From: Bacteroidales bacterium
GTDB taxonomy: Bacteria > Bacteroidota > Bacteroidia > Bacteroidales > Paludibacteraceae
Direction of reading: 5' to 3'
DNA length: 64,000 nucleotides
Assembly: GCA_012519425.1 (NCBI GenBank)
Contig: JAAYQF010000011.1
Coordinates: 10,658 to 74,657, forward strand
In this document: positions 8,866 to 42,603 of the stretch, piece after piece
Numbering within the stretch: position 1 is the first letter of the stretch
How the letters are laid out: every line of letters begins with the position of its first letter
Position numbers and translations under genes: made by a program
Notes under the pieces: model-generated
The model's input: the letters and a program-made list of their open reading frames with translations, nothing else
The model's database searches: none
What the model was told of the DNA's origin: nothing

Positions 8866-8866
8866 G

Positions 8867-9010
8867 GGTCCGCGGTCCGTGGTCCGTGGATGCGTGGTAC
8901 GGGTTCCGCGGTAGCGCGGTCGCGAGTTCGCAATTTTTTTGAGCGAAGCGTATATGGCTTGGTTTTTTTGTTTCGTTTTTTTGTATCAAGACAAAACATG
9001 AAGAGGAATG
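8867..9010 (+). repeat. Repeat-system locus E1: GC-rich heptamer tract plus 3' pseudoknot module
   Basis: GGTCCGC GGTCCGT GGTCCGT ... GTTCCGC directly after the alr stop, then TTTTTGAGCGAAGCG and TCAAGACAAAACATGAAG, which resemble the 14.9 and 35.9 kb copies. Confidence 0.8.
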
Positions 9011-9055
9011 TAGAAAAACAAAGTCACGGTCAGGCTGTTTATAAATAGAGATATA

Positions 9056-14853: not shown

Positions 14854-14861
14854 GCTTTATC

Positions 14862-15100
14862 ACTTCTCTTCATTTTTTGGCTTGAACCAAAAAACGAAGC
14901 AAAAAAGTTCAAGACTGCGCCCGCTTCGCTCAAAAAATTAGCGCTCGAACAGCTAAATCGTCCAAACTCGCAACTTCGTTGCTCAAACAAGGACGATTCT
15001 TAACGCTGTTCTCACTTATTTTTTGGCTCACCGGACGAGGTCGGTTTGCGTTGTACAACGTAACCCCCGGAACACGCACCGCGTAACTCGTAACTTAACC
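14862..15100 (-). repeat. Repeat-system locus E2: longest copy of the structured element (candidate ncRNA or ssDNA element)
   Basis: Nested inverted repeats (GAACAGC/GCTGTTC, AATCGTCC/GGACGATT, GCAAC-GAA-GTTGC), a 3' pseudoknot and a 5' heptamer tract; partial copies at 8.9, 12.4 and 35.9 kb. Confidence 0.8.
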
Positions 15101-23376: not shown

Positions 23377-24527
23377 AAACCAAAAGAACGAAATATAGAA
23401 AATCTTCTAAATCAGCAAATTTGCTTGGGACAACCCAAATATTGCTGCATGCCAATCGAATTTTAATCGGGTTGCTCTTTGTCTTTTCAGGTTTTGTAAA
23501 AGCCGTTGATCCTTTAGGAACCGTCTATAAAATCGAAGATTATTTGATTGCATTTGACGGTTTTTTTGTTGGCCTGACGTTTTTGGCTTTTCCCGCTGCC
23601 ATTTGTTTGATTGCTTTAGAGCTTTTGATTGGATTGAATTTGCTGTTTAAAGTATGGCCTAAAATAACAAGTTGGATTGCCTTGGTGTTTATGTTGTTCA
23701 TGACCGCATTAACTTTGTACATCGCTATCTATAATCCGGTTTCAGATTGCGGATGTTTCGGTGATGCACTTGTCATCTCCAATTGGCAGACCTTCTTTAA
23801 AGATGTTGTACTGCTGATCATGATAATTATTCTGCTGTTTGGGAAGAAACAGCTTCGGCCAATCTATCAATCTGGCTTCGAATGGACCTTGGTCGTTCTT
23901 TTTGTCATAGTTGCATTTGGCTTTATGGCTTATAATCTGACACATTTGCCTGTCATTGATTTCAGACCTTATAAAACAGGTGTGAATATTCAGGAAGCTA
24001 TGAGATACCCGGAGGATGCACCGAGGGATGTGTATGAATACGTTTTTACCTACGAAAAGGATGGAATAAAGAGGGAGTTTTCTTTAGAAGAAATTCCTGA
24101 TAGTACCTGGACTTTTATTTCACAAGAAACTAAATTAATATCTGAGGGTTATCAGCCGCCCATACAGGATTTTGAGATCCTTACGGCAAGTTATGAAGAT
24201 CTGACGGATGAAATACTCGAATATCAGGGTGTTACCTACTTAATAATATCTTACGACCTGAGTTTGGCATCCGAAAAAAGTATGGAACGCATCAAATCTT
24301 TTGTGACGCATCAGAGACAGCAAGATCAGGATGTGAAAATATATGCATTGACAGCTTCTTCAACCGATGATATACAGGATTTTAAATTAAAATACGATCT
24401 TGATTTCCCTTTCTATACAACGGATCCCATTACACTTAAAACGATAATTCGGGCCAATCCCGGCGTCATGAAGCTGAAAGCCGGAACGATAAAAGGGAAA
24501 TGGAATTGGAGGCAGATTAAAAATTAA
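23367..24527 (+). CDS. BT_3928 family DoxX/MauE membrane protein with thioredoxin-like C-terminus
   Basis: SGFVKAVDPLG, DCGCFGDA, DFRPYKTG, KTIIRANPG. Confidence 0.88.
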   Translation: MFLKTKRTKYRKSSKSANLLGTTQILLHANRILIGLLFVFSGFVKAVDPLGTVYKIEDYLIAFDGFFVGLTFLAFPAAICLIALELLIGLNLLFKVWPKITSWIALVFMLFMTALTLYIAIYNPVSDCGCFGDALVISNWQTFFKDVVLLIMIIILLFGKKQLRPIYQSGFEWTLVVLFVIVAFGFMAYNLTHLPVIDFRPYKTGVNIQEAMRYPEDAPRDVYEYVFTYEKDGIKREFSLEEIPDSTWTFISQETKLISEGYQPPIQDFEILTASYEDLTDEILEYQGVTYLIISYDLSLASEKSMERIKSFVTHQRQQDQDVKIYALTASSTDDIQDFKLKYDLDFPFYTTDPITLKTIIRANPGVMKLKAGTIKGKWNWRQIKN

Positions 24528-24833
24528 GAACAAAGAACAAAGAACAAAGACAAAGACAAATTGTTTAATGTTTAGTGTTTAATTTTGTTGAATTGTTTAA
24601 TTGTTTAATCGTTTAATCGTTGAATTGTTGAATTGTTGAATTGAGAACAAAAAGTAAAGATAAAAAAACGATGAATGAAGAAGAACAAAGAGCAAAGAAC
24701 AAAGACAAAAGATGAATCAACTAAGAACGAAAAGTGAAGAACGATGAACAAAGAAGACCATGCGACCCCGTAACTTCTCTAACTTCTTTAACTTCTCTAA
24801 CTTCCAAAATATAACTTCAACACTAAAAACTAT
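24528..24833 (-). repeat. Mosaic short-tandem-repeat array A (inverted relative to B and C)
   Basis: (AGAACAA)n, (TGTTTAA)n, (ATTGTTGA)n, (AACTTCTCT)n; 24635-24675 is the exact reverse complement of 40830-40870. Confidence 0.9.
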
Positions 24834-27027: not shown

Positions 27028-27134
27028 GGCGGTTTCTCAAAGGTACCCAACTGCTGCGGTCTGAGTTCCGGGTTCCGCGGTGCGTGGTCGCGAGGTTGTT
27101 TTTTTAAGTTAAATATTGGTTTTGAGACGGCCTC
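27028..27134 (+). mobile_element. MITE-like element M1 with imperfect terminal IRs and an internal heptamer tract
   Basis: Left GGCGGTTTCTCAAA, right TTTTGAGACGGCCTC; internal AGTTCCG GGTTCCG CGGTGCG TGGTCGCG; colinear with the reverse complement of 30316-30440. Confidence 0.6.
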
Positions 27135-27320
27135 TTTGGTGTTTTTTTTAAAATTTTCTTATTTTTGGAGTCTGTATTCAAGTTTTTTTAGAAAAATATA
27201 TAATTGTTTATTGATATGAAACGAACATGAACTAATTTAATCATTCGCAGGGCGAAATAATTGATTAAATTAGTTCATCGAGAGTTCCATATGACAACTA
27301 AAAGAATAAATTATAATCAT

Positions 27321-29084
27321 ATGAAAGTAACACGCATTTTCGATTTGCTGGATAATTATTTGGAAAATTATCCAAACCAAGATGCTGCTTTAGCAAGTAA
27401 AAGAGGTGGACAGTGGAAAAAGATCAGCATACAACAATATGTTGAAACAGTGAATAACATCAGCTACGGTATGTTAAAGATGGGTGTAAAACCCGGTGAT
27501 AATATCGGAATCGTGAGTGGAAACCGTCCTGAATGGAACATGCTCGACATGGCCATTATGCAAGTGGGTGCTATTTCTATTCCTATTTATCCTACCGTCA
27601 GCCAGGATGATTATCGTTACATCCTCAATCATGCTGAAATGAAGATGATTTTCATTGAGGGGAAAGAGCTTCGTCGTAAACTTGAGCCGGTTATGCCGGA
27701 AATTAAAACCTTGAAAGATATTTTCTTATTTGATGAACAAGATGGAGAATATAAGTATTTAGATCAACTGATCCAATTGGGAATAGAAAATCCGAATGCC
27801 GAAAAATTGGCGAAGATAAAAGCCGGTATCAAAGGTGGAGATATGGCTACTATCATTTATACCTCCGGTACAACCGGTGATCCGAAAGGAGTCATGTTAT
27901 CACACAGCAACCTTATCAATCAGCTTGATAACCTGAAGATGACTCCTGCAAAATGGAGTAAAGTGGCATTGAGTTTCCTTCCTTTGTGTCATGCCTACGA
28001 ACGCATCCTGGTGTATCTGTATCAATACCTGGGAATGTCGGTCTATTATGCCGAAAATTTAGGTACTATTGCCGAAAACATCAAGGAAGTACAGCCGACC
28101 ATGATGACTGCCGTGCCGCGCGTATTAGAAAAAATATACGACAAGTTATTCCTTGCAGGTAAAAAACTACCTTTTATTCAGAAAAGAATTTATTATTGGG
28201 CTTTCAATCTGGCCAAGAAATATCAGTTGGAAGGTAACAGCTGGTGCTACAGGCAACAGTTAAAATTAGCCGATAAGCTGATTTACAGAAAATGGAGAGA
28301 AGCCCTGGGTGGTAATTTTGACATTGTGGTTTCAGGAGGTTCTTCTCTTCAGCCCCACATGGGTTCTTTCTTCTCAGCTATAGGTATGCCGGTCTTTGAA
28401 GGGTATGGTTTGAGTGAAACCTCTCCGGTAATTGCCGTTAGTCGACGTGGTAAACATGGAAGAAAATTTGGTACGGTAGGACCGCCACTCCCCGGTGTGG
28501 AAGTGAAATTAGGTGATCGTGATGAGATTTTGTGCCGTGGACATAATGTCATGCTTGGCTACTATCGCAATCCTGAACTAACTGCAGAAGTAATTGATGA
28601 AGACGGTTGGTTCCATACGGGAGATACCGGTAAATTTACTCCTGAAGGTCAATTGATTGTAACCGGACGTCTAAAGAGTATTTTTAAAACATCTTTTGGA
28701 AAATACATCAATCCTCAAGCTATTGAATCCAAGTTCACTGAATCACCTTTCATTGATAATATGATCGTGTTGGGAGAAAATAAAAAGTTTGCAGCTGCCC
28801 TTATTGCGCCGGATTTTGTATTCTTAAAATCATGGTGCGCAGCCAATGAAATTCCTTATTCAACAAATGTTGAAATGGTTCAAAATCCGGATGTCTTGAG
28901 ACGTTTTGATGAAGAAATAAAAAAATATAATGCTCTCTTTGGAGATTATGAACAAATAAAGCGCTGGCAACTGGTGACCGAAGAGTGGTCGCAATCTTCC
29001 GGATTCTTGTCTCCAACCTTAAAGATCAAACGAAATGTGTTGGGAGAGTTTTATGCCGAAAGAATTGAAAAATTGTTCTCGTAA
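27321..29084 (+). CDS. Long-chain fatty acid-CoA ligase (AMP-binding family)
   Basis: YTSGTTGDPKG, GYGLSET, GWFHTGD; start uncertain (27291 or 27321). Confidence 0.92.
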   Translation: MKVTRIFDLLDNYLENYPNQDAALASKRGGQWKKISIQQYVETVNNISYGMLKMGVKPGDNIGIVSGNRPEWNMLDMAIMQVGAISIPIYPTVSQDDYRYILNHAEMKMIFIEGKELRRKLEPVMPEIKTLKDIFLFDEQDGEYKYLDQLIQLGIENPNAEKLAKIKAGIKGGDMATIIYTSGTTGDPKGVMLSHSNLINQLDNLKMTPAKWSKVALSFLPLCHAYERILVYLYQYLGMSVYYAENLGTIAENIKEVQPTMMTAVPRVLEKIYDKLFLAGKKLPFIQKRIYYWAFNLAKKYQLEGNSWCYRQQLKLADKLIYRKWREALGGNFDIVVSGGSSLQPHMGSFFSAIGMPVFEGYGLSETSPVIAVSRRGKHGRKFGTVGPPLPGVEVKLGDRDEILCRGHNVMLGYYRNPELTAEVIDEDGWFHTGDTGKFTPEGQLIVTGRLKSIFKTSFGKYINPQAIESKFTESPFIDNMIVLGENKKFAAALIAPDFVFLKSWCAANEIPYSTNVEMVQNPDVLRRFDEEIKKYNALFGDYEQIKRWQLVTEEWSQSSGFLSPTLKIKRNVLGEFYAERIEKLFS

Positions 29085-29113
29085 GACAATCAATCGGGAT
29101 TCTTAAATCAGGA

Positions 29114-29866
29114 ATGCGCTATTTCATTTATTTCGCTTACGACGGTTCAGCTTATCATGGATGGCAGATCCAGCCCAATGGAATTTCTGTACAGGAGGTA
29201 TTCACGCAGTCAATTCGTGTCATCCTTAGGGAGAAAACCGTAATAACTGCTGCCGGACGTACCGATGCGGGTGTGCATGCAAAAAGGATGGTAGCGCATT
29301 TTGATTCAGAGCGAACAGATTTGAATTCTGAAGGATTTGTCCGTCAATTGAACAGCCTCTTGCCCAAAGATATTGCCGTTCAGAAAATTGTACCTGTGAA
29401 GGAAAATGCTCATGCACGTTTCGATGCCTTGACACGTAAATACGAATATCGTATCTATTACGGAAAAAATGTTTTCAAGGATAAGTTTGCTGTCAGGATG
29501 TATCATTCTCTGGACTTCGAGCAGATGAATACGGCTGCTCAAAGGTTATTGGAATACAAAGACTTTACGAGTTTCAGTAAATTACATACTGATACCAAAA
29601 CCAATGATTGTAAGATAACCCGGGCCTTTTGGCAATCCTGCGGAGACGAATGGGTGTTTACGATAGAAGCAGACCGGTTTTTACGCAATATGGTGAGGGC
29701 AATTGTCGGTACATTGTTCGACGTCGGTATGGGAAAGATGAGTGTGAATGATTTTTGTAGCATCATCGAAGCCAAAGATCGTTGTCGGGCAGGAGTTTCT
29801 GTCCCGCCTCACGGACTGTATTTGGTTGATGTAAGTTATCCGGAAGAGATTTTTCTGCTGAGCTAA
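29114..29866 (+). CDS. truA: tRNA pseudouridine(38-40) synthase
   Basis: YDGSAYHGWQ, AGRTDAGVHA, RFLRNMVR. Confidence 0.97.
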   Translation: MRYFIYFAYDGSAYHGWQIQPNGISVQEVFTQSIRVILREKTVITAAGRTDAGVHAKRMVAHFDSERTDLNSEGFVRQLNSLLPKDIAVQKIVPVKENAHARFDALTRKYEYRIYYGKNVFKDKFAVRMYHSLDFEQMNTAAQRLLEYKDFTSFSKLHTDTKTNDCKITRAFWQSCGDEWVFTIEADRFLRNMVRAIVGTLFDVGMGKMSVNDFCSIIEAKDRCRAGVSVPPHGLYLVDVSYPEEIFLLS

Positions 29867-29985
29867 AACAATGGAGAGGAGGGGGATTTATAACAAAATC
29901 CGAATTTTATATCATCCCTTTTGAATATTAAAATAAATTATTGTATCTTTGCAACCCAATTTAAAGATAAAAATTACTTGAAGAT

Positions 29986-30246
29986 ATGAAAAGCGGAATT
30001 CATCCAGAAAATTATCGTCCTGTTGCGTTTAGGGATATGTCGAATGGCGACACTTTCATTTCACGCTCTACCGTTACTACAAAAGAAACTGTCGATATTG
30101 ACGGTGTCACTTATCCTTTGTATAAACTCGAGATTTCAAGTACATCTCATCCGTTTTATACCGGTAAAACGAACCTGGTTGACACTGCCGGTCGCGTAGA
30201 TAAGTTTATGAGTCGCTACGGTAAACGCATGGAGAAGAAAAAATAA
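29986..30246 (+). CDS. rpmE2: 50S ribosomal protein L31 type B
   Basis: [28 protein letters not shown]; no zinc-binding cysteines; -7 box TATCTTTG at 29944-29951. Confidence 0.96.
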
Positions 30247-30273
30247 GAATTTTTCCGGATCACATATATAATG

Positions 30274-30311
30274 AAGGGAAGTCAAACAAAATGAATTTGA
30301 CTTCCCTTTTT
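30274..30311 (+). terminator. Intrinsic terminator of rpmE2
   Basis: AAGGGAAGTCAAA...TTTGACTTCCCTT followed by T run. Confidence 0.8.
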
Positions 30312-30315
30312 GTGT

Positions 30316-30440
30316 GAGGCTGTCTCAAAATATTCAGCTAAAGTGTCTTACGTTAAATTTAACTTTAAACTAAGGCCGAGCATTACGCACCGCTGAACCC
30401 GGACCGCGGAACACAGCAGTTAGGCGCTTATGAGACACCG
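30316..30440 (-). mobile_element. MITE-like element M2 with terminal IRs and an internal heptamer tract
   Basis: GAGGCTGTCTCAAAA ... TTATGAGACACCG; internal minus-strand TGTTCCG CGGTCCG GGTTCAG CGGTGCG. Confidence 0.6.
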
Positions 30441-30444
30441 TTTT

Positions 30445-33342
30445 TTATAAGATAATCTTAATCGTTTTATTTCCGGATTTAATGAGGTAGATTTCTCCCG
30501 GTTTTAAATTTTGTATCAAAACCATCTGACTGTCTGACTCAATTTGTCGGATCAGAATTCCTTCTAAAGAGTATATGTAAACCGATTGGTTGTTTTCAGT
30601 ATGTTCTCCCTTATTTAGGATGATGTTTTTATGGGTGTCAACGCATACCGACCATGCATCTTTGTCTTTATCTTTGTTTGTGAATTGGGTAATTCCTTCT
30701 TGACTTAACAATACTTCCACCAAAGGAGAGGCAGAGGTTATATTTTCATATCTGACAGAATTATTCAGATTATACACTTTGTTACTGGCCTTTACAAAAT
30801 AGTAATATTCTCTGCCGGGGATGAGCATGTCAACGAAAGTTGATGTTTCTGTGGTCCAGTAATTTCTAAAATTAAATTCTATTTGTTGGGCAAACCGGAC
30901 GGAAACATCGTCTATATTTACATATCCCACTCTTTTTTCAAAGGATATTCTAAATTGATTGTAACCTTCAACTTCAGAGAAGGAATATTCTTGGGTACCA
31001 TTTGAAGGTGAAAATATCGGAATTCTTTCAAGTAGCACCCAGTCTTCCTGGTTCCTGCGAGCTTCAACAACTACAGTTCCTGAGGTTGCACCCACAGATC
31101 GCATGTAAAAAGAGAATCCGGTAAGGGGAAAGAGGTATTTTTCTGTCTGAATGAAATCACCCGTTTGAGTGAATTGTATGGACGGACTTGATGCACCGGC
31201 ATATCTGTCATTATCATCTAAGCTTGATGCCTTGATGATCCAGTCAATAGGCGCAGTCAAACCATTGTCGAATGCTTCAGTGAGCGATGATGACCCTTCT
31301 TTAACATTATAAACAGTCAGGTAATATCCGGTAGCACCTTGTACAGCATTCCAGCTTGCCGTGAAACCATCTATTGTCGTCAATGTGATTTGCTCTTCAT
31401 TGATGGTTGGTGCTTTGATGGGCGGTGGTGTTGATATGCCGGAAATAACTTGCTGTTCCAGATCAGCTTCGTCGGATTGTATGTTCAGATATTCAAAATG
31501 CGTATCGTCTAAAGAAGCATGCGTGGGATTATAACGTATCAGAATAACGGTATTTTCAACTACAGAGTCTGTGGCAACGAGTTCTATGCTTTTTGTCCAT
31601 GTATCTGTGGGATCATTTTTCTCCTGAAGTTCAAAATTTTCATTGAATTCAAAATTGATGATGATATTGGATTTTAAGTGCTGTCCGCTTACAGTAAACT
31701 CCTGTGGCTCGGAAGGAATTCCAGCCTCAGTAGAAAAAGGTATTAAGAGATGATGGTTGGTGTTGATGACAGGAGGAAGGCCACCTCCCATGAAGTCAAA
31801 CGTAATTAATTCTCCCATCTGTCTGATATTGGTGACAGGTTGGCCTATATCCGTACCATCCCTTAACATAGGATTGAAACTGGTAATATTGGCAGACCCC
31901 GGAAACGGATCACCGGCCAATGTTTTTTTGTCGGCTATGCCATCTGCTTCCATGATGTCCACACCCATTTCATCTTTATTGTTGTTGGGCGAATTGTTTC
32001 TCCAGGTGGCAGCATTGTAATTAATTCTTGTAATTAGCATGCCGCTGTTTGGTAAGAAAGTGTCCCAACCTGTCTTTTGTCGGTTTTCCAATATGAAAAA
32101 TTCTTTGGGATTTGGATTGTCTCCCTCCAAATTATGGAGGCCTGTTTGGCTGATTAAATAGGCTTTGTTAGTTGATTGTAATTCCGGCAAAGAAACCCCG
32201 CGGGAAGATTTTAAAATGGTCGGGGTCAGCCATCCCAAATAAAACCTGTCGTATGCAGAATGAGTTGGGGGAGTACGACCTTCATTCAAATACGCGCCGT
32301 CATCCATGATGCTCCACATGGATAAAGTATGGTGTTCTCCGCCATCAGTTGCGTAATAGTCAACAAGCCCATAAACATGACTAAATTCATGGGCAAAAGT
32401 TCCTATGCCACACATGATTGTGCCTTTGTTGCCTCTTAGCTCTGAACTGCAGGCATATCCTTTTACCCGTACCCCATCAATGGTCAAACGCCTCTCTAGC
32501 TCCCAGCGGTGCGGCCAAACTGAATTTTCCGGACCTCCTTCAGCTTCATTGTATCCTGCATAATAGACAAATACATTGTCAACAATGCCGTCTCCGTCTG
32601 TATCAAATTGAGAAAAATCAACTCCATCGGATGCCGCAAGGTTGCAAGCATCAATAACCATTTGTCTTGGATTTTTGTCATCTCCGTTTTTATCATTGGC
32701 TCCGTAGTATGCCATGCTGTCGGGTAAGGTGTAAGGACCTACTACTATAAAATCGGGAGAGGATACACCATTTGATGCTGCTATAAAATAATCCCTTGCC
32801 GAACCAGTGCCTCCGTTTTTCCTGTATCCCTCTTCATTCAGCAGGTTGGTAAAGGCAATTTGAGGTTCAGGAACTTTGAATTTGACATCTTTGAAATTTA
32901 CGAGAATGACTAAGGATTGTGGCGAACCTGTTTTAGGAAAGCTGCTGGTCAATTCCGATGCTGCAGGAATTTTTTGCATTTTTCTTTCCTGTCTTACCCG
33001 ACTGAAATCCGGGAATGGAATTTCATTTTTTAAGAAATCACGTTCTTGCTGCGTCCGTTTTTCAATGGGGTTGACCCTTATGTCGGTAATACTGATGTTG
33101 CCTGCTTCGTCTTTTATAGCATGATGATAAAAACCTTGTGGGTTGCGTTTGATTAAATATCCGTCGGTTGTCAGTTCATATTTGAAAAATTCGTCGCCCC
33201 GCAAACAGATGGTTAGCTCGCTGCCGTCCGGCTGGACCTTGGTCACAGGATAAGGTATTGCAGGTACTGCATGGACTTGTATGCTGTTTGCAAAAAGAAA
33301 AACAGCAATCATCAATTTATATATGGAAAGAGTTGTTCTCAT
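30445..33342 (-). CDS. M6 family (immune inhibitor A-like) metalloprotease with FN3 and T9SS-type C-terminal domain
   Basis: Signal peptide, QPDG propeptide, HEFSHVYGLVDYY (HExxH), C-terminal VYIYSLEG...KIIL. Confidence 0.9.
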   Translation of the reverse strand: MRTTLSIYKLMIAVFLFANSIQVHAVPAIPYPVTKVQPDGSELTICLRGDEFFKYELTTDGYLIKRNPQGFYHHAIKDEAGNISITDIRVNPIEKRTQQERDFLKNEIPFPDFSRVRQERKMQKIPAASELTSSFPKTGSPQSLVILVNFKDVKFKVPEPQIAFTNLLNEEGYRKNGGTGSARDYFIAASNGVSSPDFIVVGPYTLPDSMAYYGANDKNGDDKNPRQMVIDACNLAASDGVDFSQFDTDGDGIVDNVFVYYAGYNEAEGGPENSVWPHRWELERRLTIDGVRVKGYACSSELRGNKGTIMCGIGTFAHEFSHVYGLVDYYATDGGEHHTLSMWSIMDDGAYLNEGRTPPTHSAYDRFYLGWLTPTILKSSRGVSLPELQSTNKAYLISQTGLHNLEGDNPNPKEFFILENRQKTGWDTFLPNSGMLITRINYNAATWRNNSPNNNKDEMGVDIMEADGIADKKTLAGDPFPGSANITSFNPMLRDGTDIGQPVTNIRQMGELITFDFMGGGLPPVINTNHHLLIPFSTEAGIPSEPQEFTVSGQHLKSNIIINFEFNENFELQEKNDPTDTWTKSIELVATDSVVENTVILIRYNPTHASLDDTHFEYLNIQSDEADLEQQVISGISTPPPIKAPTINEEQITLTTIDGFTASWNAVQGATGYYLTVYNVKEGSSSLTEAFDNGLTAPIDWIIKASSLDDNDRYAGASSPSIQFTQTGDFIQTEKYLFPLTGFSFYMRSVGATSGTVVVEARRNQEDWVLLERIPIFSPSNGTQEYSFSEVEGYNQFRISFEKRVGYVNIDDVSVRFAQQIEFNFRNYWTTETSTFVDMLIPGREYYYFVKASNKVYNLNNSVRYENITSASPLVEVLLSQEGITQFTNKDKDKDAWSVCVDTHKNIILNKGEHTENNQSVYIYSLEGILIRQIESDSQMVLIQNLKPGEIYLIKSGNKTIKIIL

Positions 33343-33372
33343 TTCAGAACGCGAAGATAGACAATTAATTTT

Positions 33373-34500
33373 TCAAAAGGACACCTTGTTGTTTTTAGTC
33401 GAATATTTGTTTTGAGACAGCCTGTTGATTGCTTCCAATAATATTTTTTCTTCCTGTTCCCAGCAATACAGTTTTTTGACTGTATCAAAATGTGTTGTAT
33501 CCATTGGGTTCTCCAACATAGCCTGGATGGTTGCCGCTAATTTATGCGGTTCATACTCATCTGTCAAAATGCCTGTGTGGTGTTTTTTTACGATTTGCAC
33601 TATCTCCGGAAATGGACTTGCCAGGATGGGTACATGGGCATGTAAATAGGCAAAAACCCTGTTGGGCAGGGAGTAATAATAGCTTAACCCTTTGTTTTCC
33701 AACAAGCACAGGCCTATGTCTCCCGATGAGGTATAGCTTTGTAATTCTTTTCCCGAAACTTTCCCGTGAAAGATCACTTTCGATTCCAATCCAAGCATTT
33801 TTACCTTTTGCTTTAGCTCCATGAGCAAGTCTCCGTCACCTATAATGTACAGAACAGCATCTTTTATATATGGCATGGCATTAATTACCCATTCCAATCC
33901 CCTGCCCATATTGACGGCTCCCTGATACAAAATGATTTTTTTATCCGGTACAGTGATTTTCCGCTCTGTTGGCAGCTCCGAAAGATGAGGAACATTTCTG
34001 AGTACTTGCATGTTGATGCCGTATTTATTCTGATAATAGTCAGCAATAGAATCACATACAGTAAAGGATGTATTGAGGTGTGGAAATATAAGATCTTCAA
34101 TTTTTGTCCAAAACTTTTTGACGAATGGTCTGTCCCGGAGTTCCGGTGTTTCCGGGAAAAGTTCATGAGCATCGAAGATCAACTGTTTTTTTCTGATTTT
34201 GGAGGCGAGGAAACAGGCAGGAAGGGTGTCTGTATCGTTGGCGTAATAAATATCAGCTTTTGAAAAAAGCAAATACAGAAACAAACGGATATTCAGTTCA
34301 GCGTAAAATAAAAAAGACCGATTGAAGAGCAAACGCAATCTTTTATGAGGAAATACTATCCGGCTGTTTAAGGTGTTTTTTCGTCTTCTGCCTATTAAAA
34401 ATACCTCATATCCATGCTTAAATAATGAACCGGATACTTTCAACACACGCTGGTCCGTTACGAGATCGTTTGATACAGCTATCAGAATTCTTTTGCCCAT
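33373..34500 (-). CDS. Glycosyltransferase family 4
   Basis: VSNDLVTDQRV, YQGAVNMGRGLE, SLPNRVFAYLHA. Confidence 0.9.
   Translation of the reverse strand: MGKRILIAVSNDLVTDQRVLKVSGSLFKHGYEVFLIGRRRKNTLNSRIVFPHKRLRLLFNRSFLFYAELNIRLFLYLLFSKADIYYANDTDTLPACFLASKIRKKQLIFDAHELFPETPELRDRPFVKKFWTKIEDLIFPHLNTSFTVCDSIADYYQNKYGINMQVLRNVPHLSELPTERKITVPDKKIILYQGAVNMGRGLEWVINAMPYIKDAVLYIIGDGDLLMELKQKVKMLGLESKVIFHGKVSGKELQSYTSSGDIGLCLLENKGLSYYYSLPNRVFAYLHAHVPILASPFPEIVQIVKKHHTGILTDEYEPHKLAATIQAMLENPMDTTHFDTVKKLYCWEQEEKILLEAINRLSQNKYSTKNNKVSF
33380..33424 (-). repeat. Isolated IR end of the GGCTGTCTCAAAA type inside the GT4 3' end
   Basis: Minus strand CAGGCTGTCTCAAAACAAATATTCGACTAAA versus GAGGCTGTCTCAAAATATTCAGCTAAA at 30316. 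Confidence 0.55.
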
Positions 34501-34504
34501 TTGA

Positions 34505-35821
34505 TTACAATTCTTTTTGTAAATATTTCAACACATCCTTATAAAGTGTTCTATGATAGGAATTGACGTTTTTTTCAACGGAATTATTGTGCCACAAAAA
34601 ACTGATTTCTCCGTGGGCATTGCGTACAGTGTTAATTAATCTCTTACAATATTGGAAGGCTTCATGGGCGTTCATGAACATGTATTTTTTTTCGCTGAGC
34701 GTTACGTCCATGATGGTCAAGTGGTGCAAACGCAGATTTGTAAGTTTTTTTTCTATAGGGTTGATCCATCGGACTTCCCGGCAAGTTCCCAATCTAAATC
34801 CCGCCATGTCGGCATATCCCATGCTGAAATCATCTGTAATTCCGCTGTTGATGTGATATTCGAAATCTTCAGGTTCCCTGTTGTTTAAAAAATGACTTCT
34901 GCTGTAATTAATTTTGAGGCGCGTAAATTTTTCCAGACGCTTTTTTTCTTCGGCGATCAGTGTGGGATTACAACCCGCTTCATAACTGGTGTGTAAACCA
35001 ATGGTAATTTTCTTTCTCCTGATATATCGAATCAATTGTTTGTAGTCCGGATGTGCTAAATTAACTATAGGTTTATCTTCCTTCCTCTTGCTGTTGTGAG
35101 ATCGGATAAAAGTGATAATTTCACAACCTTCCTTACTCATTTTTTTTTGAAGCTCGGTATCTAATTTAAAAAGATACGGAAAGGTGTACCAAGGGTCAAA
35201 AATCAATCCTCCAAAATAACTTTTAATAGCCTGTTTAGCTTCTTTTGGTCGCCTGATACCTCGCAGAATTCCGCCCATCATGCCGCGGATGCTTCTGTAA
35301 TGAGCCAGTTGGTCAACATCATGCGTTAAGTAGACTTTGTTTATTTTACGAGGGGGGTCGTTGACTTCAATTCCTGTTTCCCTTAATTTCTGTCGCAGTA
35401 TTGCCCCCCATTCCTCAATGATGGGGCGGTCAATAAAGCCCGCCCTGTAGGGTAAAGACTCTTTGCCCGGAAATCGTCGGTGAGCATCACGAACGTCACG
35501 ACGCACCATTTCCTCATATCTTGAGATGAGGAAGTAGGTGCCTGCAACAATATCCGCATGTAATACAAGCGTATTCCCAACCATTTCCTCAGTAGGTTCC
35601 CCAAAAAGAACGGGTGTCTCTTCCCACAATTTGAGTGGTAGTTTCGGGAGACTGTCTTGTGTTCCGTAAATTCCATCTTCAAAGAATTCTGAAGGTTTGA
35701 TGACCAATTTATATTGAGCATAATCTTCTTCTTTTGAAGTATAACCGATTAATTCGGCAATATCTTCAGAAACATGGTCCCCAACCAAAAACCTAATGAT
35801 GTATTTAATAATTTCTTCCAC
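34505..35821 (-). CDS. Polysaccharide deacetylase-like protein (DUF7033 N-terminus)
   Basis: FLISRYEE, LTHDVD, IGLHTSY, RSHFL, MGYADMAGFRLGT; GTG start; paired with GT4. Confidence 0.8.
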   Translation of the reverse strand: MEEIIKYIIRFLVGDHVSEDIAELIGYTSKEEDYAQYKLVIKPSEFFEDGIYGTQDSLPKLPLKLWEETPVLFGEPTEEMVGNTLVLHADIVAGTYFLISRYEEMVRRDVRDAHRRFPGKESLPYRAGFIDRPIIEEWGAILRQKLRETGIEVNDPPRKINKVYLTHDVDQLAHYRSIRGMMGGILRGIRRPKEAKQAIKSYFGGLIFDPWYTFPYLFKLDTELQKKMSKEGCEIITFIRSHNSKRKEDKPIVNLAHPDYKQLIRYIRRKKITIGLHTSYEAGCNPTLIAEEKKRLEKFTRLKINYSRSHFLNNREPEDFEYHINSGITDDFSMGYADMAGFRLGTCREVRWINPIEKKLTNLRLHHLTIMDVTLSEKKYMFMNAHEAFQYCKRLINTVRNAHGEISFLWHNNSVEKNVNSYHRTLYKDVLKYLQKEL

Positions 35822-35861
35822 TTCAATGCTTAATATAAGTTCTTATTGCCTGCAAATTCAC

Positions 35862-36004
35862 ACTTTCTTCATTTTTTTGTCTTGACCGAAGCAAAAAAAA
35901 GTCAAGACTGTGCCCGCTTCGCTCGAGAAATTAACTTCATAATTTGCAATCTTCCGACCTCGGAACCCGCTACCCCGGAACCCGGAACGCGGAACTCGCT
36001 ACTA
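35862..36004 (-). repeat. Repeat-system locus E3: heptamer tract plus shortened pseudoknot module
   Basis: Abuts the uvrA stop; 35903-35924 matches 14910-14931 at 21/22 nt. Confidence 0.85.
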
Positions 36005-38857
36005 TCAACTGCCTTCTAACTCCCTCTTCAAATATTCCCCCGTTTTACTGTTGGGGTTATTAGCGACTTCCTGAGGTGTTCCGGAACAAATAATTTGTCC
36101 TCCCTCTCGTCCGCCGCCCGGACCTATATCAATAATATGGTCGCAAACCTTGATAACATCCATATTATGTTCTATGATGATTATCGTATTCCCCCTGTCT
36201 GTCAAACGATTCAAAACGGATAAAAGTACGCGGATATCTTCAAAGTGCAACCCTGTTGTTGGCTCATCCAGTAAATACAAGGTGTTTCCAGTGTCTTTTT
36301 TCGAGAGTTCCGCCGCTAGCTTTACGCGCTGGCTCTCGCCTCCGGAGAGGGTTGTGCTTGGTTGTCCCAGTTTAATGTATCCTAATCCGACTTCTTTTAA
36401 AGTTTTTATTTTATTTAAAATTCTAGGTTGATTCTCGAAGAAATCAACGGCCTGATTGATTGTCATGTTTAGCACGTCGGCAATGGATTTCCCTTTGAAT
36501 CTGATTTCCAGAGTTTCTTTGTTATATCTTTTCCCTCCACAACTTTCGCAAGTTACATGCACATCGGGCAGAAAATTCATTTCGATGGTTTTGTAACCAT
36601 TGCCACTACATACTTCACAGCGCCCTCCGACGGTGTTGAAGGAAAATCTTCCGGGTTTATAAGCGCGGATTTTAGCTTCCGGTAAAGATACAAATAGATT
36701 TCTTATCTCGGAAAAGACTCCGGTGTAGGTTACCGGATTGGAACGTGGTGACCTTCCTATGGGGGATTGATCGACCATAACAACCTTGTCGATATTCTCA
36801 ATGCCCTCCACTGATCGATAGCCAAGAGGATCTTTCAAAGAGGAGTAGAAATGCTGACTTAAAATAGGCTGTAAGGTGCTGTTGATCAGTGTTGATTTTC
36901 CGCTTCCCGATACACCGGTCACACAAATCATTTTACCTAAAGGAAAGCTTACGTCAATATTCTTCAGATTGTTTCCGCAGGCACCTTTGATGGTTAAAAG
37001 TTTACCGGATCCGGGACGTATCTTCGATGGGATCTCGATTTTTTCTTTACCGTTGAGATAAGATGCCGTGAGTGAATTCGATTTTAAGATGCCTTCCGGA
37101 CTGCCGGCATAAACCACATTGCCGCCAAGTCGCCCCGCACCCGGACCTAAATCTATTAAAAAATCAGCCGACAGCATCATTTCCTTGTCGTGTTCCACAA
37201 CGATGATGGAGTTACCGCTGTCGCGCAACTGCTTAAGTGATTTGATCAACTTTTGATTGTCACGCTGGTGTAGTCCGATGCTCGGTTCATCCAGGATGTA
37301 AAGCACATTGACTAATTGGGTCCCGATCTGTGTTGCCAAACGAATGCGTTGACTTTCACCCCCGGACAATGAATAAGAATTTCGGTTCAAAGATAAATAG
37401 TCCAGGCCTACATTAATCAAAAATCGAAGGCGCTGTTTGATTTCTTTTAAAATTTCGACGGCTATGGTCCTTTGTTTTTCTGACAAATATTGCTCCACTT
37501 GGGATATCCATTCATGTAATTCATCTATATCCATTTTGGCCAATTCAGCAATATTTTTGTCGTGAATTTTAAAATATAAAGATTCTTTTTTTAGTCTCGT
37601 ACCTTTACATGCCGGACAAATAATTTCTTGAGAAAACTGATTTGCCCATTTTTGCTCAGTGGCAGATGCATCCCGATCTTGCTGCATCTCAATGTATTTG
37701 ATGATGCCGTCGTAATTGAGAAAATAATTTGAATCACCCAAAGATTGATTTTTGATTTTCAATCTTTCGTCAGTTCCATTCAGAATCTCATCCATTGCCT
37801 CTTTTGGTATTTCGGTTACCGGCATCTTAATATGACAGTCATATTTCTCCAGGATTGCCTCAATCTGCCAATATATAACCGAGTTTTTATGTTTTCCCAA
37901 TGGAACAATGGCGCCGTTATAAATGCTGAGAGATGGATTTGGGATGATTTTTTCAATGTCAATTTCGTTGATAAAGCCTAAGCCTTTGCAAGTCGGGCAA
38001 GCTCCGTGGGGTGAATTGAAAGAGAAATTATGCGGTGCGGGTTCGTTGTACGAAATACCGGTGGTCGGACACATCAGGTTCTTACTGAAGTACCTGATTG
38101 AGTCAGCTTCAACATCCAATATCATGATGATGCCATCACCCTGTTGCATACCTTGCTTTAATGATTTTGAAAGACGTTGTCGATTGCTGTCCTGCACAAT
38201 GATCCGGTCGATTACCAACTCAATATCGTGGATTTTATACCTGTCAACTTTCAACCCATAGCTAAGTTCTTGTATGTCACCATCAATGCGTACATGCAAA
38301 TAACCTTTTTTACGGGTGGTTTCAAATAATTCTTTGTAATGTCCCTTGCGTCCTTTTACCAAGGGAGCTAAGAGCATGATTTTTTTACCTTTATACTCTT
38401 TGGCGATAAGTTCAAGAATTTGCTCTTCAGAATATCTGACCATTTTCTCTCCGGTAAGGTAGGAAAAGGCCTCACCTGCACGTGCATATAACAACCTGAG
38501 AAAATCATAAATTTCAGTGGTCGTTCCCACCGTAGAACGAGGATTTTTGTTGGTTGTTTTTTGCTCGATGGAAATGACGGGGCTTAGTCCGGTAATCTTA
38601 TCAACATCCGGTCTTTCCAAATTGCCCAAGAAGTTACGGGCATATGCCGAAAAAGTCTCTATGTAACGACGTTGCCCCTCGGCGTATATCGTATCGAAAG
38701 CCAGGGAAGATTTGCCGCTGCCGCTCAGTCCGGTTATGACAGTCAGCGCATTGCGGGGTATGGATACATTGATGTTTTTTAAGTTGTGAACACGGGCACC
38801 GGTGACCACTATTTCACCTGACCTGTCTGTTTTTTCTATGTCTGTATTTTGTTTCAA
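36005..38857 (-). CDS. uvrA: Excinuclease ABC subunit A
   Basis: Two ABC modules (GLSGSGKSS, GVSGSGKST), LSGGE signatures, zinc fingers; -7 box TACCTTTG at 38890-38897. Confidence 0.97.
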   Translation of the reverse strand: MKQNTDIEKTDRSGEIVVTGARVHNLKNINVSIPRNALTVITGLSGSGKSSLAFDTIYAEGQRRYIETFSAYARNFLGNLERPDVDKITGLSPVISIEQKTTNKNPRSTVGTTTEIYDFLRLLYARAGEAFSYLTGEKMVRYSEEQILELIAKEYKGKKIMLLAPLVKGRKGHYKELFETTRKKGYLHVRIDGDIQELSYGLKVDRYKIHDIELVIDRIIVQDSNRQRLSKSLKQGMQQGDGIIMILDVEADSIRYFSKNLMCPTTGISYNEPAPHNFSFNSPHGACPTCKGLGFINEIDIEKIIPNPSLSIYNGAIVPLGKHKNSVIYWQIEAILEKYDCHIKMPVTEIPKEAMDEILNGTDERLKIKNQSLGDSNYFLNYDGIIKYIEMQQDRDASATEQKWANQFSQEIICPACKGTRLKKESLYFKIHDKNIAELAKMDIDELHEWISQVEQYLSEKQRTIAVEILKEIKQRLRFLINVGLDYLSLNRNSYSLSGGESQRIRLATQIGTQLVNVLYILDEPSIGLHQRDNQKLIKSLKQLRDSGNSIIVVEHDKEMMLSADFLIDLGPGAGRLGGNVVYAGSPEGILKSNSLTASYLNGKEKIEIPSKIRPGSGKLLTIKGACGNNLKNIDVSFPLGKMICVTGVSGSGKSTLINSTLQPILSQHFYSSLKDPLGYRSVEGIENIDKVVMVDQSPIGRSPRSNPVTYTGVFSEIRNLFVSLPEAKIRAYKPGRFSFNTVGGRCEVCSGNGYKTIEMNFLPDVHVTCESCGGKRYNKETLEIRFKGKSIADVLNMTINQAVDFFENQPRILNKIKTLKEVGLGYIKLGQPSTTLSGGESQRVKLAAELSKKDTGNTLYLLDEPTTGLHFEDIRVLLSVLNRLTDRGNTIIIIEHNMDVIKVCDHIIDIGPGGGREGGQIICSGTPQEVANNPNSKTGEYLKRELEGS

Positions 38858-38934
38858 AATGATGTCTTGTCCGAAAGCCTGTTAACTTGCAAAGGTAATA
38901 TTTTTTACGTAGAGAATAATTGACCGAGTGTCGG

Positions 38935-38965
38935 TTTGTGATATCAATAAAAAATATTAACTTTG
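38935..38965 (+). promoter_or_regulatory. Bacteroidota promoter of rplY-pth-hslR
   Basis: TTTG-N19-TAACTTTG. Confidence 0.75.
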
Positions 38966-39063
38966 CCTCGCTTTTTTAACAAAGAAAAGTGTGATGGGAA
39001 ATTTAGCGACTAATCACTTAATAATCAACGCTAAAATTTTGAGTAACACATATAAAAAAACAA

Positions 39064-39696
39064 ATGAAAACATTCGATTTAGAAGGAAAACTACGCCGGG
39101 AAGTTGGTAAGAAGTCAGCTAAAATTGCTCGCGCAACCGACAATGTGCCGTGCGTTTTGTATGGCAACAGTGAAAACGTACATTTTACAGTAACACAAGG
39201 TGCTATTCGTAAGTTGATTTACACACCTGAAGTGTTTGTTGTTAACTTAACGATTGATGGTAAGAAAAAGAAAGCCATTATCAAAGAATTGCAGTTTCAT
39301 CCGGTTAAAGATACATTGATGCACGTTGATTTTTTGGAAATCACAGATAAGAAACCGGTTGCCATGGATATCCCTGTAAAATTAACCGGGCTTGCTGAAG
39401 GAGTAAAGGCTGGTGGTAAATTGAATTTACAATTGCGTAAATTAAGAGTAAAAGGAATTTATACGGATTTCCCTGAAACCATTACTTTAGATGTGACCGA
39501 TTTGGTGTTGGGTAAATCAATTCGAGTTGGTGATATAAAACTTGATAATTTAGAAATTCTATCTCCCAAGCATGCTGTTGTTTGTCAGGTTAAATTGACG
39601 CGTGCTGCTCGCTCTGCCGATGAAGAAGAACTGGAAGCAGAAGAAGGAGCAGAAGGAGAAGGAACTGAAGGAGGAGAAAAAACTTCAGAAGAATAA
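39064..39696 (+). CDS. rplY: 50S ribosomal protein L25/general stress protein Ctc
   Basis: [28 protein letters not shown]; acidic tail. Confidence 0.96.
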
Positions 39697-39707
39697 TCTG
39701 TTGTAAC

Positions 39708-40268
39708 ATGAAGTACCTGATAGTTGGACTCGGGAATATCGGTCCCGATTACCAGGACACCCGACACAACATAGGATTCACAATATTGGATGCTCTTGCG
39801 AGGGTGTCCAATGTTGTTTTTGAGGATAAGCGATACGGGTTTGTAGCCCGCATCAAATTGAAAGGACGTACATTGATTTTGTTGAAGCCCTCAACTTTTA
39901 TGAATTTGAGTGGCAATGCAGTGCGTTATTGGATGAGAAAAGAGAAGATTGAAAATGAAAACTTATTGGTTGTTGTCGATGATATTGCGCTTCCGTTTGG
40001 AACGTTGAGACTGAAGCCTCAGGGGTCGGATGCAGGGCACAACGGACTGAAAAGTATTCAGGATTTGATCGGTACTGAGTATCCCCGTTTACGTTTTGGT
40101 ATTGCCAGTAATTTTCCCAGAGGATGTCAGGTTGAATATGTGTTGGGAAAATTTGAAGAAGAAGAGCAATTGTTGTTGCCCGAAAGAATTGACAAAGCCA
40201 TTGAAATGATCAAAAGCTTTTGTTTAGCTGGTATACAACTGACCATGACACAGTTTAATAACAAGTAA
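39708..40268 (+). CDS. pth: Peptidyl-tRNA hydrolase
   Basis: [31 protein letters not shown]. Confidence 0.97.
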
Positions 40269-40292
40269 ATTGAAAAGAGAGGGAGTACGGAT

Positions 40293-40685
40293 ATGGAAAC
40301 TGAAGTACGAATAGATAAATGGCTGTGGGCAGTCCGCCTCTATAAAACCCGCACATTGGCTGCTGAGGCTTGTAAAAAGGGGAAAGTCCTGGTTGACGGT
40401 GTTGAAGTTAAGCCTTCACGCAATGTCAAGATAGGTGATATCATTCAAGTCAAACGAAACCCGGTACTTTTTTCCTATGAGGTGCTGGCACTGACAGAAA
40501 GAAGGGTGGGTGCCAGGTTGGTTCCTGAATTGATCAAAGACGTCACTACTCCCGATCAGTTGGAATTGTATGAACTGGGTAAAATCGCTGCCAAGAGTAA
40601 TCGTCAGAGAGGTAAAGGACGACCGACCAAAAAAGAGAGGCGAGATCTGGAAGCCTTCCTTGAACCTGTTTTTTGGGAAGAATAA
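40293..40685 (+). CDS. hslR: RNA-binding S4 domain protein (Hsp15)
   Basis: RIDKWLWAVRLYKTR, GRPTKKERR. Confidence 0.93.
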   Translation: METEVRIDKWLWAVRLYKTRTLAAEACKKGKVLVDGVEVKPSRNVKIGDIIQVKRNPVLFSYEVLALTERRVGARLVPELIKDVTTPDQLELYELGKIAAKSNRQRGKGRPTKKERRDLEAFLEPVFWEE

Positions 40686-40690
40686 TATTT

Positions 40691-41067
40691 GGTAGTTAGT
40701 AGTTGGTAGTTAGTAGTTAGTAGTTTTTTTGGAAGTTATTGAAGTTAAAGAAGTTAGGGAAGTTACGGGGTCCGAGGTCCGAGTTCCGCGGTCGCGAGTT
40801 TAGCTTTTGGCTCTTGGCTTTGTTCTTCGTTCATCGTTTTTTTATCTTTACTTTTTGTTCTCAATTCAACGATTCAACAATTCAACGATTCAACAGTTCA
40901 ACGACTCAACAATTCAACAATTCAACAAAATTAAACATTAAACATTAAACATTAAACAATTTGTCTTTACTCTTTTGTCTTTGTTCTTTGCTCTTTGTTC
41001 TTCTTCGTTCTTCGTTTTTAGTTGATCTGTCTTTATTCTTTTGTCTTTGTTCTTTGCTCTTTGTTCT
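40691..41067 (+). repeat. Mosaic short-tandem-repeat array B (most complete copy)
   Basis: (RGTAGTT)5-(GAAGTTANN)4-(NGKTCCG)3-T-rich-(RATTCAAC-like)8-(ATTAAAC)4-(CTTTGTT-like)n; fills the whole intergenic region. Confidence 0.92.
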
Positions 41068-41073
41068 GTAAAC

Positions 41074-41619
41074 ATGCTCATCGCTTCTTATCTTAAAAAT
41101 ACGAACATCGCCGAATACTTGCTGTATATGTGGCAGGTGGAAGATACCATACGTGCCATGAATTTTGATATTGGTCGCATTGAAAAATCGGTGGTCGACC
41201 GCCTTCCAGTGAAAGATGAAAATGAACGTCTTACTGTTTTAACCTGGTATGAAGACTTGATAGACATGATGCGACGTGAAAATGTGATGGACAAAGGACA
41301 TTTACAAATAAATAAAAATACGATCGTCGACCTTGACGACTTTCATTATTTAATCTTGGGCTCTGAGCGTGTTCCGGCATATAATGCCAAATACCTGCAT
41401 GTGTTGCCGTTTATTAATCAATTCAGACAGAAGTCGGAGGCGGGTTTAACAGACATTGAACTGTGCTTTAATTTCCAATATGGTATATTGATGCTCAGAT
41501 TACAGAAAAAAGAGATCAGTGCGGAGACACTTAAAACACAGGAAGAAATTTCAAAGTTTTTGGTTTTACTAACTAAAAATTACCATGCTTTTGCGGAAGG
41601 CAAGCTTGACTTGGAATAA
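41074..41619 (+). CDS. DUF4924 family protein
   Basis: NIAEYLLYMWQVEDTIRA, GHLQINKN, IELCF..YG.LMLRLQKKEIS.ET; the upstream extension in the ORF track is repeat-derived. Confidence 0.85.
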   Translation: MLIASYLKNTNIAEYLLYMWQVEDTIRAMNFDIGRIEKSVVDRLPVKDENERLTVLTWYEDLIDMMRRENVMDKGHLQINKNTIVDLDDFHYLILGSERVPAYNAKYLHVLPFINQFRQKSEAGLTDIELCFNFQYGILMLRLQKKEISAETLKTQEEISKFLVLLTKNYHAFAEGKLDLE

Positions 41620-41724
41620 ATTGATTACCTTTGTTCCTGTTAATTTTATTAAAATTTATTATAGTGACCGTTTGTAGAAAACAGTCCATTCAGACTAATC
41701 ACTAAAACTAAAACCAGTACAAAA

Positions 41725-42603
41725 ATGAAAGGAATCATTCTTGCCGGGGGAGCAGGCACCCGCTTATACCCCATTACAAAAAGTATTTCCAAGCAAATCA
41801 TTCCGGTGTATGATAAACCCATGATCTATTACCCGCTTTCGGTGCTTCTGCTGTCGGGTATACGTGAAATATTGATTATCTCAACACCGCAGGACATTCA
41901 TTTGTATGAAAATTTATTGGGTGATGGCAAAGAGCTTGGAATAGATATACAGTATGCCATTCAACCTTCTCCGGACGGATTGGCACAGGCTTTTATCATT
42001 GGAGAGGAATTTATCGGAAATGACACTGTCTGTATGATATTGGGCGATAATATTTTTTATGGATTTGATTTTTCCAAGATTTTGAGAGAAGCTGCTCAGT
42101 TAAAAGAAGGAGCCATCGTGTTTGGATATTATGTGCGTGATCCGGAACGTTATGGAGTTGCTGAATTTGACGCCAAAGGCAGGGTAATCAGTTTGGAGGA
42201 AAAACCTGCGAAACCAAAATCAAATTATGCGGTGACCGGTTTGTATTTTTATGGAAATGATGTGATTGAGAAAGCTAAGTCTTTAAAGCCTTCCAAGAGG
42301 GGAGAATTAGAGATTACAGACTTAAACAGGTTGTATTTGGAGGAAAATCGTTTGAGTGTAAAACTTATGGGGCGTGGTATGGCCTGGTTGGATACCGGAA
42401 CACACGATAGTCTGTTAGATGCTTCTAATTTTATAGCAACCATCGAAAGCAGACAAGGTTTGAAAGTTGCCTGTATCGAAGAAATAGCCTATAGAAACGG
42501 TTATATTGATAAAGAACAGCTGCTTAAATTGGCTGAACCGCTTAAAAAGAATCACTACGGAGAGTATTTGATAAAAATTGCTGATGAAAAAGTTTTTGAC
42601 TGA
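41725..42603 (+). CDS. rfbA: Glucose-1-phosphate thymidylyltransferase
   Basis: [32 protein letters not shown]; -7 box TACCTTTG at 41626-41633. Confidence 0.97.

Follow-up and report, generated by a model that had tools for sequence, protein, structure and literature searches.

Why does a GC-rich, directional array of heptamers recur in the spacers of an otherwise AT-rich Bacteroidales genome, joined to three different kinds of repeat and in many cases placed directly behind a stop codon? We considered this question for a stretch of 64,000 nucleotides from a member of the Paludibacteraceae (assembly GCA_012519425.1, contig JAAYQF010000011.1), the whole of which we call the window. An original prediction, made from the letters of the sequence alone, held that the array and its partners are interchangeable parts of one repeat system with a shared recognition or insertion signal, possibly aimed at the 3' ends of genes. 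The window is a stretch of housekeeping genes, near-identical DNA is present in many metagenome assemblies, and the nearest relatives of its S4/Hsp15 protein carry the source label Paludibacter sp. The names first given to the genes beside the arrays, namely a MurF-alanine racemase fusion (murF-alr), RadA, an M6 peptidase, UvrA and an S4/Hsp15-type protein (hslR), hold. Related loci in other assemblies are referred to below by numbers beginning with L.

Results

A polar heptamer module in intergenic DNA

In the window we found 16 matches to the two-unit sequence GKTCCGNGKTCCG (at most one mismatch allowed), against an expectation of 0.27 +/- 0.51 from 100 dinucleotide shuffles, none of which reached 16. 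The matches lie at 8867-8908 (+), 15068-15080 (-), 27058-27084 (+), 30393-30412 (-), 35954-35995 (-), 40762-40788 (+) and 46716-46728 (+). All 16 fall between ORFs, with none inside a long ORF, and the arrays of related loci are intergenic as well. TRF, applied independently, reported period-7 arrays of 4-7.6 copies at 8867-8921, 35961-35995 and 40769-40798, and 7 is the commonest tandem-repeat period in the window. It had been proposed to give up the module if its motif proved no commoner than in shuffled DNA; within the window the motif is far commoner, and this excess (16 vs 0.27), together with conservation at the orthologous loci of other strains, refutes chance or an artefact of composition as the source of the pattern. 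The exact repeat sequences had no match in the literature.

The module is GC-rich in a window of about 39-40% GC, and its units, of 7-8 nt, run head to tail. At the alr locus (8866-8931, +; about nine units) it reads GGTCCGC GGTCCGT GGTCCGT GGATGCGT GGTACGG GTTCCGC GGTAGCGC GGTCGCGA GTTCGC and ends in an anchor, GGTCGCGAGTT. The recurrent 3' terminal unit of the module is GGTCGCGAG, with GGGGTC in its place at the border of the full-length structured element described below. Written as GGTCGCGAGKT, the anchor has four matches in the window, at 8918, 27086, 40790 and 46730, all in the orientation of the module, where 0.53 are expected, and it stands beside arrays in L002, in L004 and in nine or more other Paludibacter-like loci. 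A terminal unit shared by four modules and found again elsewhere indicates that the module is real and polar, and that it is more than a number of similar heptamers in series.

Eight heptamer loci had been listed originally, and seven of them contain all of the GKTCCGNGKTCCG matches. The eighth was placed about 10 nt away from its true position: bases 24772-24787, which had been taken for a vestigial module, are a GAAGTTA block, and the vestige (reverse complement ACGGGGTCGC) is the adjoining 24762-24771 (-), within a reversed copy of a mosaic.

Three carriers, each with one slot for the module

The three classes of partner that had been proposed are real, and the window holds three copies of a structured element, two MITE-like elements bounded by inverted repeats, and three mosaics of short arrays. 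Within a class the module always occupies one position and points one way: it forms the 5' border of the structured element, follows AACTGCTG in the MITE-like element, and is flanked in the mosaic by the GAAGTTA block and GGTCGCG-AGTTTAGC. All three classes contain this polar module as a constant part, as had been suggested for the window, and this extends to independent Paludibacter-like metagenome contigs.

The alr module begins 1 nt past the stop codon (TAG) of the murF-alr fusion and abuts a degenerate 3' part of the structured element (GAGCGAAGCG ... CAAGACAAAACATGAAG) at 8932-9012 (+). A full-length copy of about 200 nt occupies 14856-15058 (-), directly 3' of the module at 15059-15095 (-; AGTTACG AGTTACG CGGTGCGT GTTCCGG GGGTTACG), which is antisense to both flanking genes. 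The third copy, truncated at its 5' end, spans 35866-35953 (-); it lies between a module of about seven units at 35954-36004 (-), which starts directly past the uvrA stop codon, and flanking sequence common to L477, in which this segment is absent. The abutment of modules on the stop codons of alr and uvrA is therefore much as originally described.

Both MITE-like carriers follow genes. The first, at 27028-27135 (+; GGCGGTTTCTCAAAGG ... TTTTGAGACGGCCTC), begins 12 nt past the radA stop and encloses the module at 27058-27096 (+; GGTCTGA GTTCCGG GTTCCGC GGTGCGT GGTCGCG AGGT, then T7), and the second, at 30317-30440 (-; CGGTGTCTCATAAG ... TTTTGAGACAGCCTC), begins 4 nt past the stop of the M6 peptidase gene and encloses the module at 30386-30413 (-). 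Their common ends are CGGTGTCTCATAAG and TTTTGAGACAGCC(TC). Terminal inverted repeats are present on the carriers at 27028-27135 and 30317-30440 and not on the module itself, so it is the carriers that are MITE-like. The elements are absent at orthologous sites of L479, where the flanks are too diverged for target duplications to be read. A longer MITE form, with ends GGTGTCTCATAAG and TTTTGAGACAGCC, occurs within the structured element, in its apical hairpin and in either orientation, for example at L518 8745-8903 (-) and L493 9477-9622 (-). Its presence there means that the MITE has moved and that these repeats nest in each other.

The mosaics of the window are copies of one composite, with up to 90% identity over 101 nt, and their blocks follow the order (GTAGTTA)n, (GAAGTTANN)n, module, (TYGTTCN)n, (CAATTCAA)n, (ATTAAAC)n, (TTTGTYC)n. 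One, at 40690-41067 (+), fills the whole spacer between hslR and the DUF4924 gene; it begins 6 nt past the hslR stop and ends 8 nt short of the DUF4924 ATG, with its module at 40762-40800 (+; GTTACGG GGTCCGA GGTCCGA GTTCCGC GGTCGCGAGTT). The copy at 46622-46915 (+), in the divergent spacer between pheT and an AMP-binding gene, has the same block order and contains the module at 46713-46740 (+). The third, at 24515-24810 (-), is a reversed copy of these arrays of 7-9-nt units that is 90% complementary over 101 nt to 40690-41067, and it includes the vestige mentioned above. Further mosaics with this order, and with the module in the corresponding slot, were found outside the window. Some copies run up to a start codon, as in the hslR-DUF4924 spacer, L592 and L504.

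The structured element

The structured element is widespread among related assemblies: a 23-mer from it was found in at least 117 metagenome contigs, with several occurrences per contig, and the element itself is present at several copies per 100 kb and at many of the loci L483-L599. Its consensus runs ...CGACCTCGTCCGGTGAGCCGAAAAATAAGTGAGAACAGCG...GAGCGAAGCGGGCGCAGTCTTGA...CAAGACAAAAAAATGAAG, the last of these being the 3' end. In an alignment of 16 copies, 20 of the 45 predicted pairs show compensatory changes and many have G-U pairs, which fixes the strand of the element. Rfam 15 gave no match in the window at gathering score, and its E-value mode gave only matches at chance level; no known RNA family was identified, and no relation to tRNA or tmRNA was found. 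An alternative drawing of the element's 3' part has two interleaved helices, which may form a pseudoknot.

The module bears a constant relation to this element. At no fewer than 14 distinct loci, window copies included, every module within 400 nt of a structured element is upstream of it and co-oriented. The junction in which GGGGTC is followed by AAARTGYTRCA (GGGGTC and then AAARTGYTRCAGG) has seven matches, each beside a module, and a second constant junction of the module comes directly after GGTCGCGWG. By our own reading of the alignment (A3), about 19 of about 31 distinct copies of the structured element have no module, and their 5' sequence is unrelated. One copy is internally deleted with both ends kept.

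Several copies carry a second multi-hairpin sequence (ATCAAAATTGTCCGTAGGACAAACACGTG...CCCCCGGATTCATCCGGGG...AAAACTCTGTAAGAGTTT...CCCCAATTAAAATTGGGGG...) inserted into the middle of the structured element, at L507 9511-9712, L596 10086-10190 and L539 from about 940, among others; this insert had no Rfam match. Structured elements of the window end in an A-rich run and then ATGAAG, at 8996-9046 (+), 35867-35881 (-) and about 14862 (-). The ATGAAG opens tiny, unconserved ORFs (16 codons, 4 codons and so on) and resembles a start context of the Bacteroidetes type.

Variation between strains and related species

At one and the same locus the array differs between strains. In the uvrA spacer the array numbers about 7 units in the window, against about 12 in L002 and about 10 in L477; these arrays have their 3' units in common and differ in their 5' units. 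The hslR spacer has three units in the window and one in L002, the M6 MITE-like element of L477 contains GGTACGT units, and the arrays of the pheT spacer also differ between strains. In strains that are 98-99.9% identical the GC-rich module is kept, whereas AT-rich arrays differ by multiples of 7 nt. The array behaves as a minisatellite evolving in place, and replication slippage would be the simplest cause of that behavior.

The module and the structured element need not occur together. At uvrA, L477 has the module and lacks the element, and both are present in the window and in L002; the missing segment is precisely bounded. Module and element are thus separable, and modules that lack any partner occur both here and in L559, where the module follows a stop codon.

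Individual AT-rich arrays can be compared between the window and L006/L007, which are about 99% identical to it. In the regions of the window at 46624-46672 and 41024-41066, a GTAGTTA array differs by multiples of 7 nt and a TTTGTCT/TTTATTC array by 14 nt, and such arrays could mark strains. At L004 11237-11335, which belongs to GCA_900198705.1 (FZPS01000212.1, a 2.8-Mb scaffold with an N gap), the DUF4924 gene is joined to an unrelated region with another copy of the module plus element. The repeats have probably caused this join.

The module was not found in 20 kb each of L479 and L481, more distant Paludibacter species whose Hsp15 proteins are 78% and 72% identical. The L479 spacers at uvrA and M6 are 28-29 nt long, and its hslR spacer carries other heptamers, (TGTCTAA)5(ACAGACA)7. 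Since that spacer has heptamer arrays and no GC-rich module, we take such arrays to be a trait of the genus and the GC-rich version to be restricted to one lineage. At L479 10404-10484 and 19631-19704, neighbouring heptamer arrays complement each other and form long hairpins, with z = -6.1 for (TGTCTAA)5/(ACAGACA)7 and z = -10.6 for (TTGAAAG)4/(CTTTCAA)5; the mosaics of the window do not do this.

Position relative to genes

We tallied 25 distinct module loci, taken from the window and from added loci with mechanically called ORFs, a biased sample in that the structured element was the route to most of the additions. Fifteen of the modules follow the end of a co-oriented gene, four are in divergent spacers and co-oriented with the downstream gene, and six are antisense, for a ratio of sense to antisense of 19:6 (p ~ 0.015 by our own binomial estimate, which is not the output of a tool). 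The association with gene 3' ends that had been proposed is therefore borne out in this sample. The first unit, or the start of the carrier, is at most 13 nt from a stop codon in 11 of the 25 loci. This closeness can be accounted for by the length of the spacers, because the orthologous spacers of a relative (L479) measure only 28-29 nt and any insertion into so short a spacer would land near a stop codon; insertions are probably less well tolerated in the part of a spacer next to the following start codon. Taken together, strand bias and proximity to stops are a hint of function or targeting rather than neutrality.

A replication-oriented signal comparable to Chi or KOPS was considered and rejected, as GC skew is monotonic and positive and the modules are divided four plus and four minus, with no bias. 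The frame at 8866-9046, which includes the A-poor module, is open for 60 codons past the alr TAG. Such A-poor arrays are open in all frames, so they are a possible source of spurious ORF extensions and mis-called stops in annotation.

RNA structure

Folds of seven modules, compared with composition-matched shuffles, gave z values from -1.65 to +1.73. In all seven the sense RNA is 3-12 kcal/mol more stable than the antisense RNA, which is to be expected of any strand rich in G and U. For the alr module the fold energy is -35 kcal/mol, against a genomic GC content of about 39%. A T-run follows two of the eight modules (8932 and 27099). A terminator scan over 28001-48000, a range that includes four of the eight loci, called none of those modules, and a 14-bp hairpin at 30308-30274, after the MITE-like carrier of the M6 locus, is likely the true terminator there. 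We accordingly keep the idea that a hairpin or terminator in the RNA defines the module only as a minor alternative, since the folding of the module is no better than that of shuffles and the scan calls none of the four modules covered. The RNA of the mosaic at 40686-41075 is less structured than 100 of 100 shuffles (z = +2.84) and that of 46615-46920 has average structure (z = +0.36), and long-range pairing within the mosaics is rejected.

Heptamer arrays in other phyla

Arrays matching a three-unit pattern of the module occur widely, with 108 stretches in viral contigs and at least 120 in species-representative genomes. Among the matches listed are Planctomycetota, Verrucomicrobiota, Acidobacteriota, Gemmatimonadota, Bacteroidales and Flavobacteriaceae, and the arrays are often in intergenic mosaics and sometimes after stop codons. 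On this evidence one might suppose that the GKTCCG array is a functional motif universal to many phyla. Scrambled versions that keep the composition of the heptamer, GCCTKG and GTCKGC, however, each gave at least 120 stretches in viral contigs where the real sequence gave 108. The wide occurrence thus reflects a general abundance of heptamer arrays and not this particular sequence, and with these controls the idea of a universal motif is rejected as very improbable. The heptamer arrays of other phyla (L009-L236) very often lie at the end of a contig, a sign that short-read assemblies may break at them, and they often occur as inverted pairs close together (for example L176, L185, L187).

Discussion

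Origin and spread of the module

The reading we prefer, at a probability of roughly 0.5, is that the module is a heptamer minisatellite driven by slippage, with a conserved anchor, that has been carried along by nested non-autonomous repeats and is kept mainly in sense orientation behind stop codons. Among the heptanucleotide arrays in the intergenic spacers of this Paludibacter lineage it would be the GC-rich one, and it would not be mobile in its own right; the array is polar, with a conserved 3' anchor and a variable 5' side. Dispersal may have come about as a passenger of the structured element of about 200 nt, the TIR-bounded MITE and the heptamer mosaics, three carriers that also insert into one another. 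After landing, each array would gain, lose and mutate units where it lay, with replication slippage as the simplest mechanism. The surviving copies are mostly sense and just behind stops, likely because insertions are tolerated in short spacers there, though either tolerance or selection might be the cause of this position. At such sites an A-poor, GC-rich tract may also serve as a modest RNA 3' structure. Slippage by itself does not account for the recurrence of one heptamer family with a conserved terminal unit, or for its place at the 5' border in every case of a nearby structured element (at least 14 loci).

Part of the evidence would also suit a module selected as a cis-acting RNA element of the upstream mRNA, that is, a GC-rich clamp or protein-binding platform behind the stop codon that blocks 3' exonucleases, aids termination or tunes translation termination, as REP sequences of E. 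coli do. The 19:6 sense bias over 25 loci points that way, as do the stronger sense fold of all seven modules, the -35 kcal/mol of the alr module, the T-run behind the modules at 8932 and 27099, and the units themselves, which are visibly quasi-palindromic in RNA (GGUCC, CCGG and CCGCGG, with G-U pairs). We nevertheless consider such a role doubtful. Folding does not surpass that of composition-matched shuffles, none of the four modules in 28001-48000 is called as a terminator, the M6 gene has a strong 14-bp hairpin of its own downstream of the module, and six loci are antisense; in addition, the arrays turn over fast and are absent at orthologous sites in related species.

An enzymatic origin, closer to the original prediction, would make the module the place at which a single enzyme-driven mobile system recognises, attaches or primes. 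That system would target sites 3' of stop codons and have structured element, MITE and mosaic as interchangeable parts joined at the module. Fixed polarity and constant junctions with each partner are what such a system would leave behind, and so are the module's invariable place upstream of and co-oriented with a nearby structured element, the 5'-truncated element copies that abut it at alr and uvrA, and first units or carriers 0-13 nt past the stop in 11 of 25 loci; the 20 covarying pairs among 45 in the structured element are as expected of an RNA-guided or RNA-templated element. The enzyme gene flanked by the module that the prediction had proposed to look for is not among the ORFs of the window, where we found no transposase, RT, recombinase, HUH or RAYT-like gene. 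Nor does the module look like a shared recognition signal, as it has no constant length, fixed 5' end, terminal inverted repeats or recognisable target duplication, its units and sequence change at a single locus, solo modules exist, and most copies of the structured element (about 19 of about 31) stand without it. The short ancestral spacers, moreover, suffice to explain closeness to stop codons, and we judge a single enzyme-driven system of this kind to be unlikely. More specifically, the array could be the 5' attachment or priming tract of an undescribed, RNA-structured non-autonomous element of the Bacteroidales, made or extended at integration, with module, element, MITE and mosaic all produced by one enzyme system; the element would be the unit of about 200 nt with 20 covarying pairs, landing behind stop codons, and its enzyme would be encoded elsewhere in the genome. 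That version seems to us distinctly improbable.

Relation to known repeats

The STRR sequences of cyanobacteria are named heptamers of heterocystous species. Long simple sequence repeats (LSSRs) with units of 5-11 nt were described by Mrazek et al. 2007, as summarised in PMC4679880, which presents heptanucleotide arrays as the commonest long SSR class in prokaryotes, intergenic in Bacteroidetes including Paludibacter. The TAACTGA repeats reported from Beggiatoaceae, Cyanobacteria and some Bacteroidetes, Paludibacter propionicigenes among them (PMC4679880), belong to this class, as do the STRR sequences. The module resembles the LSSR/STRR class in its head-to-tail 7-nt units, in its intergenic position, in the presence of several heptamers per spacer, in a copy number specific to strain or species, in a frequent position beside start or stop codons, and in having no known enzyme. 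By the usual marks of the class it belongs there, as its 7-nt units are in tandem in three or more copies (TRF), are mostly intergenic and are polymorphic in copy number and unit sequence between strains. It is not an STRR in the strict sense, the organism being a Paludibacter and the heptamer a different one, so the likeness is one of kind and not of family. It also differs in being GC-rich in an AT-rich genome, in its conserved 3' unit, and in being part of three dispersed families rather than an isolated array.

Closer to home, BrickBuilt is a MITE of Porphyromonas gingivalis that encloses a minisatellite (PMC4596501). Like the carriers described here it is an intergenic, non-autonomous element of the Bacteroidales with inverted-repeat ends, a spacer-less tandem array, multiple copies and a limited range of hosts. 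Its units, however, are of 23 nt and belong to one type of element, whereas those of the module are of 7-8 nt and occur in a MITE, in an element without TIRs and in mosaics.

The REP units of enterobacteria are imperfect palindromes of 20-40 nt linked to RAYT transposases. They and the BIMEs lie mostly 3' of genes and are co-transcribed with them, and they can stabilise the upstream mRNA and affect translation termination near the stop codon. The module is similarly GC-rich against its surroundings, part of mosaics made of a few motif types, and located 3' of genes. It lacks the palindromic hairpin that defines REP/BIME sequences, as it is a direct array that folds no better than shuffles and has no structure beyond what its composition gives, and there is no RAYT-like gene in the window. 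In Nostoc and Anabaena, as Elhai and colleagues are said to have described in 2008, small dispersed repeats are nested in other repeats as single units of 21-27 nt with defined ends. The module is comparable as a very short sequence inside several unrelated repeat families with no known mechanism, but it is a tandem array of variable length and not a single unit with defined ends.

Significance

Heptanucleotide arrays are the commonest long simple repeats of prokaryotes. The lineage studied here is an unusually tractable case, in which one array with fixed polarity and an anchor is found in three carriers, can be compared base by base between strains, and shows a bias toward sense orientation and toward stop codons. 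The covarying, dispersed element of about 200 nt is the more surprising object of the neighbourhood. If the module is only a slippage-prone passenger, it would be a high-resolution strain marker, would explain breaks in assemblies, and would call for caution in annotation. We know of no classical Hfq, ProQ or CsrA system in the Bacteroidales; if the module is functional or is recognised by an enzyme, it would point to a new post-transcriptional or mobile-element mechanism in this order.
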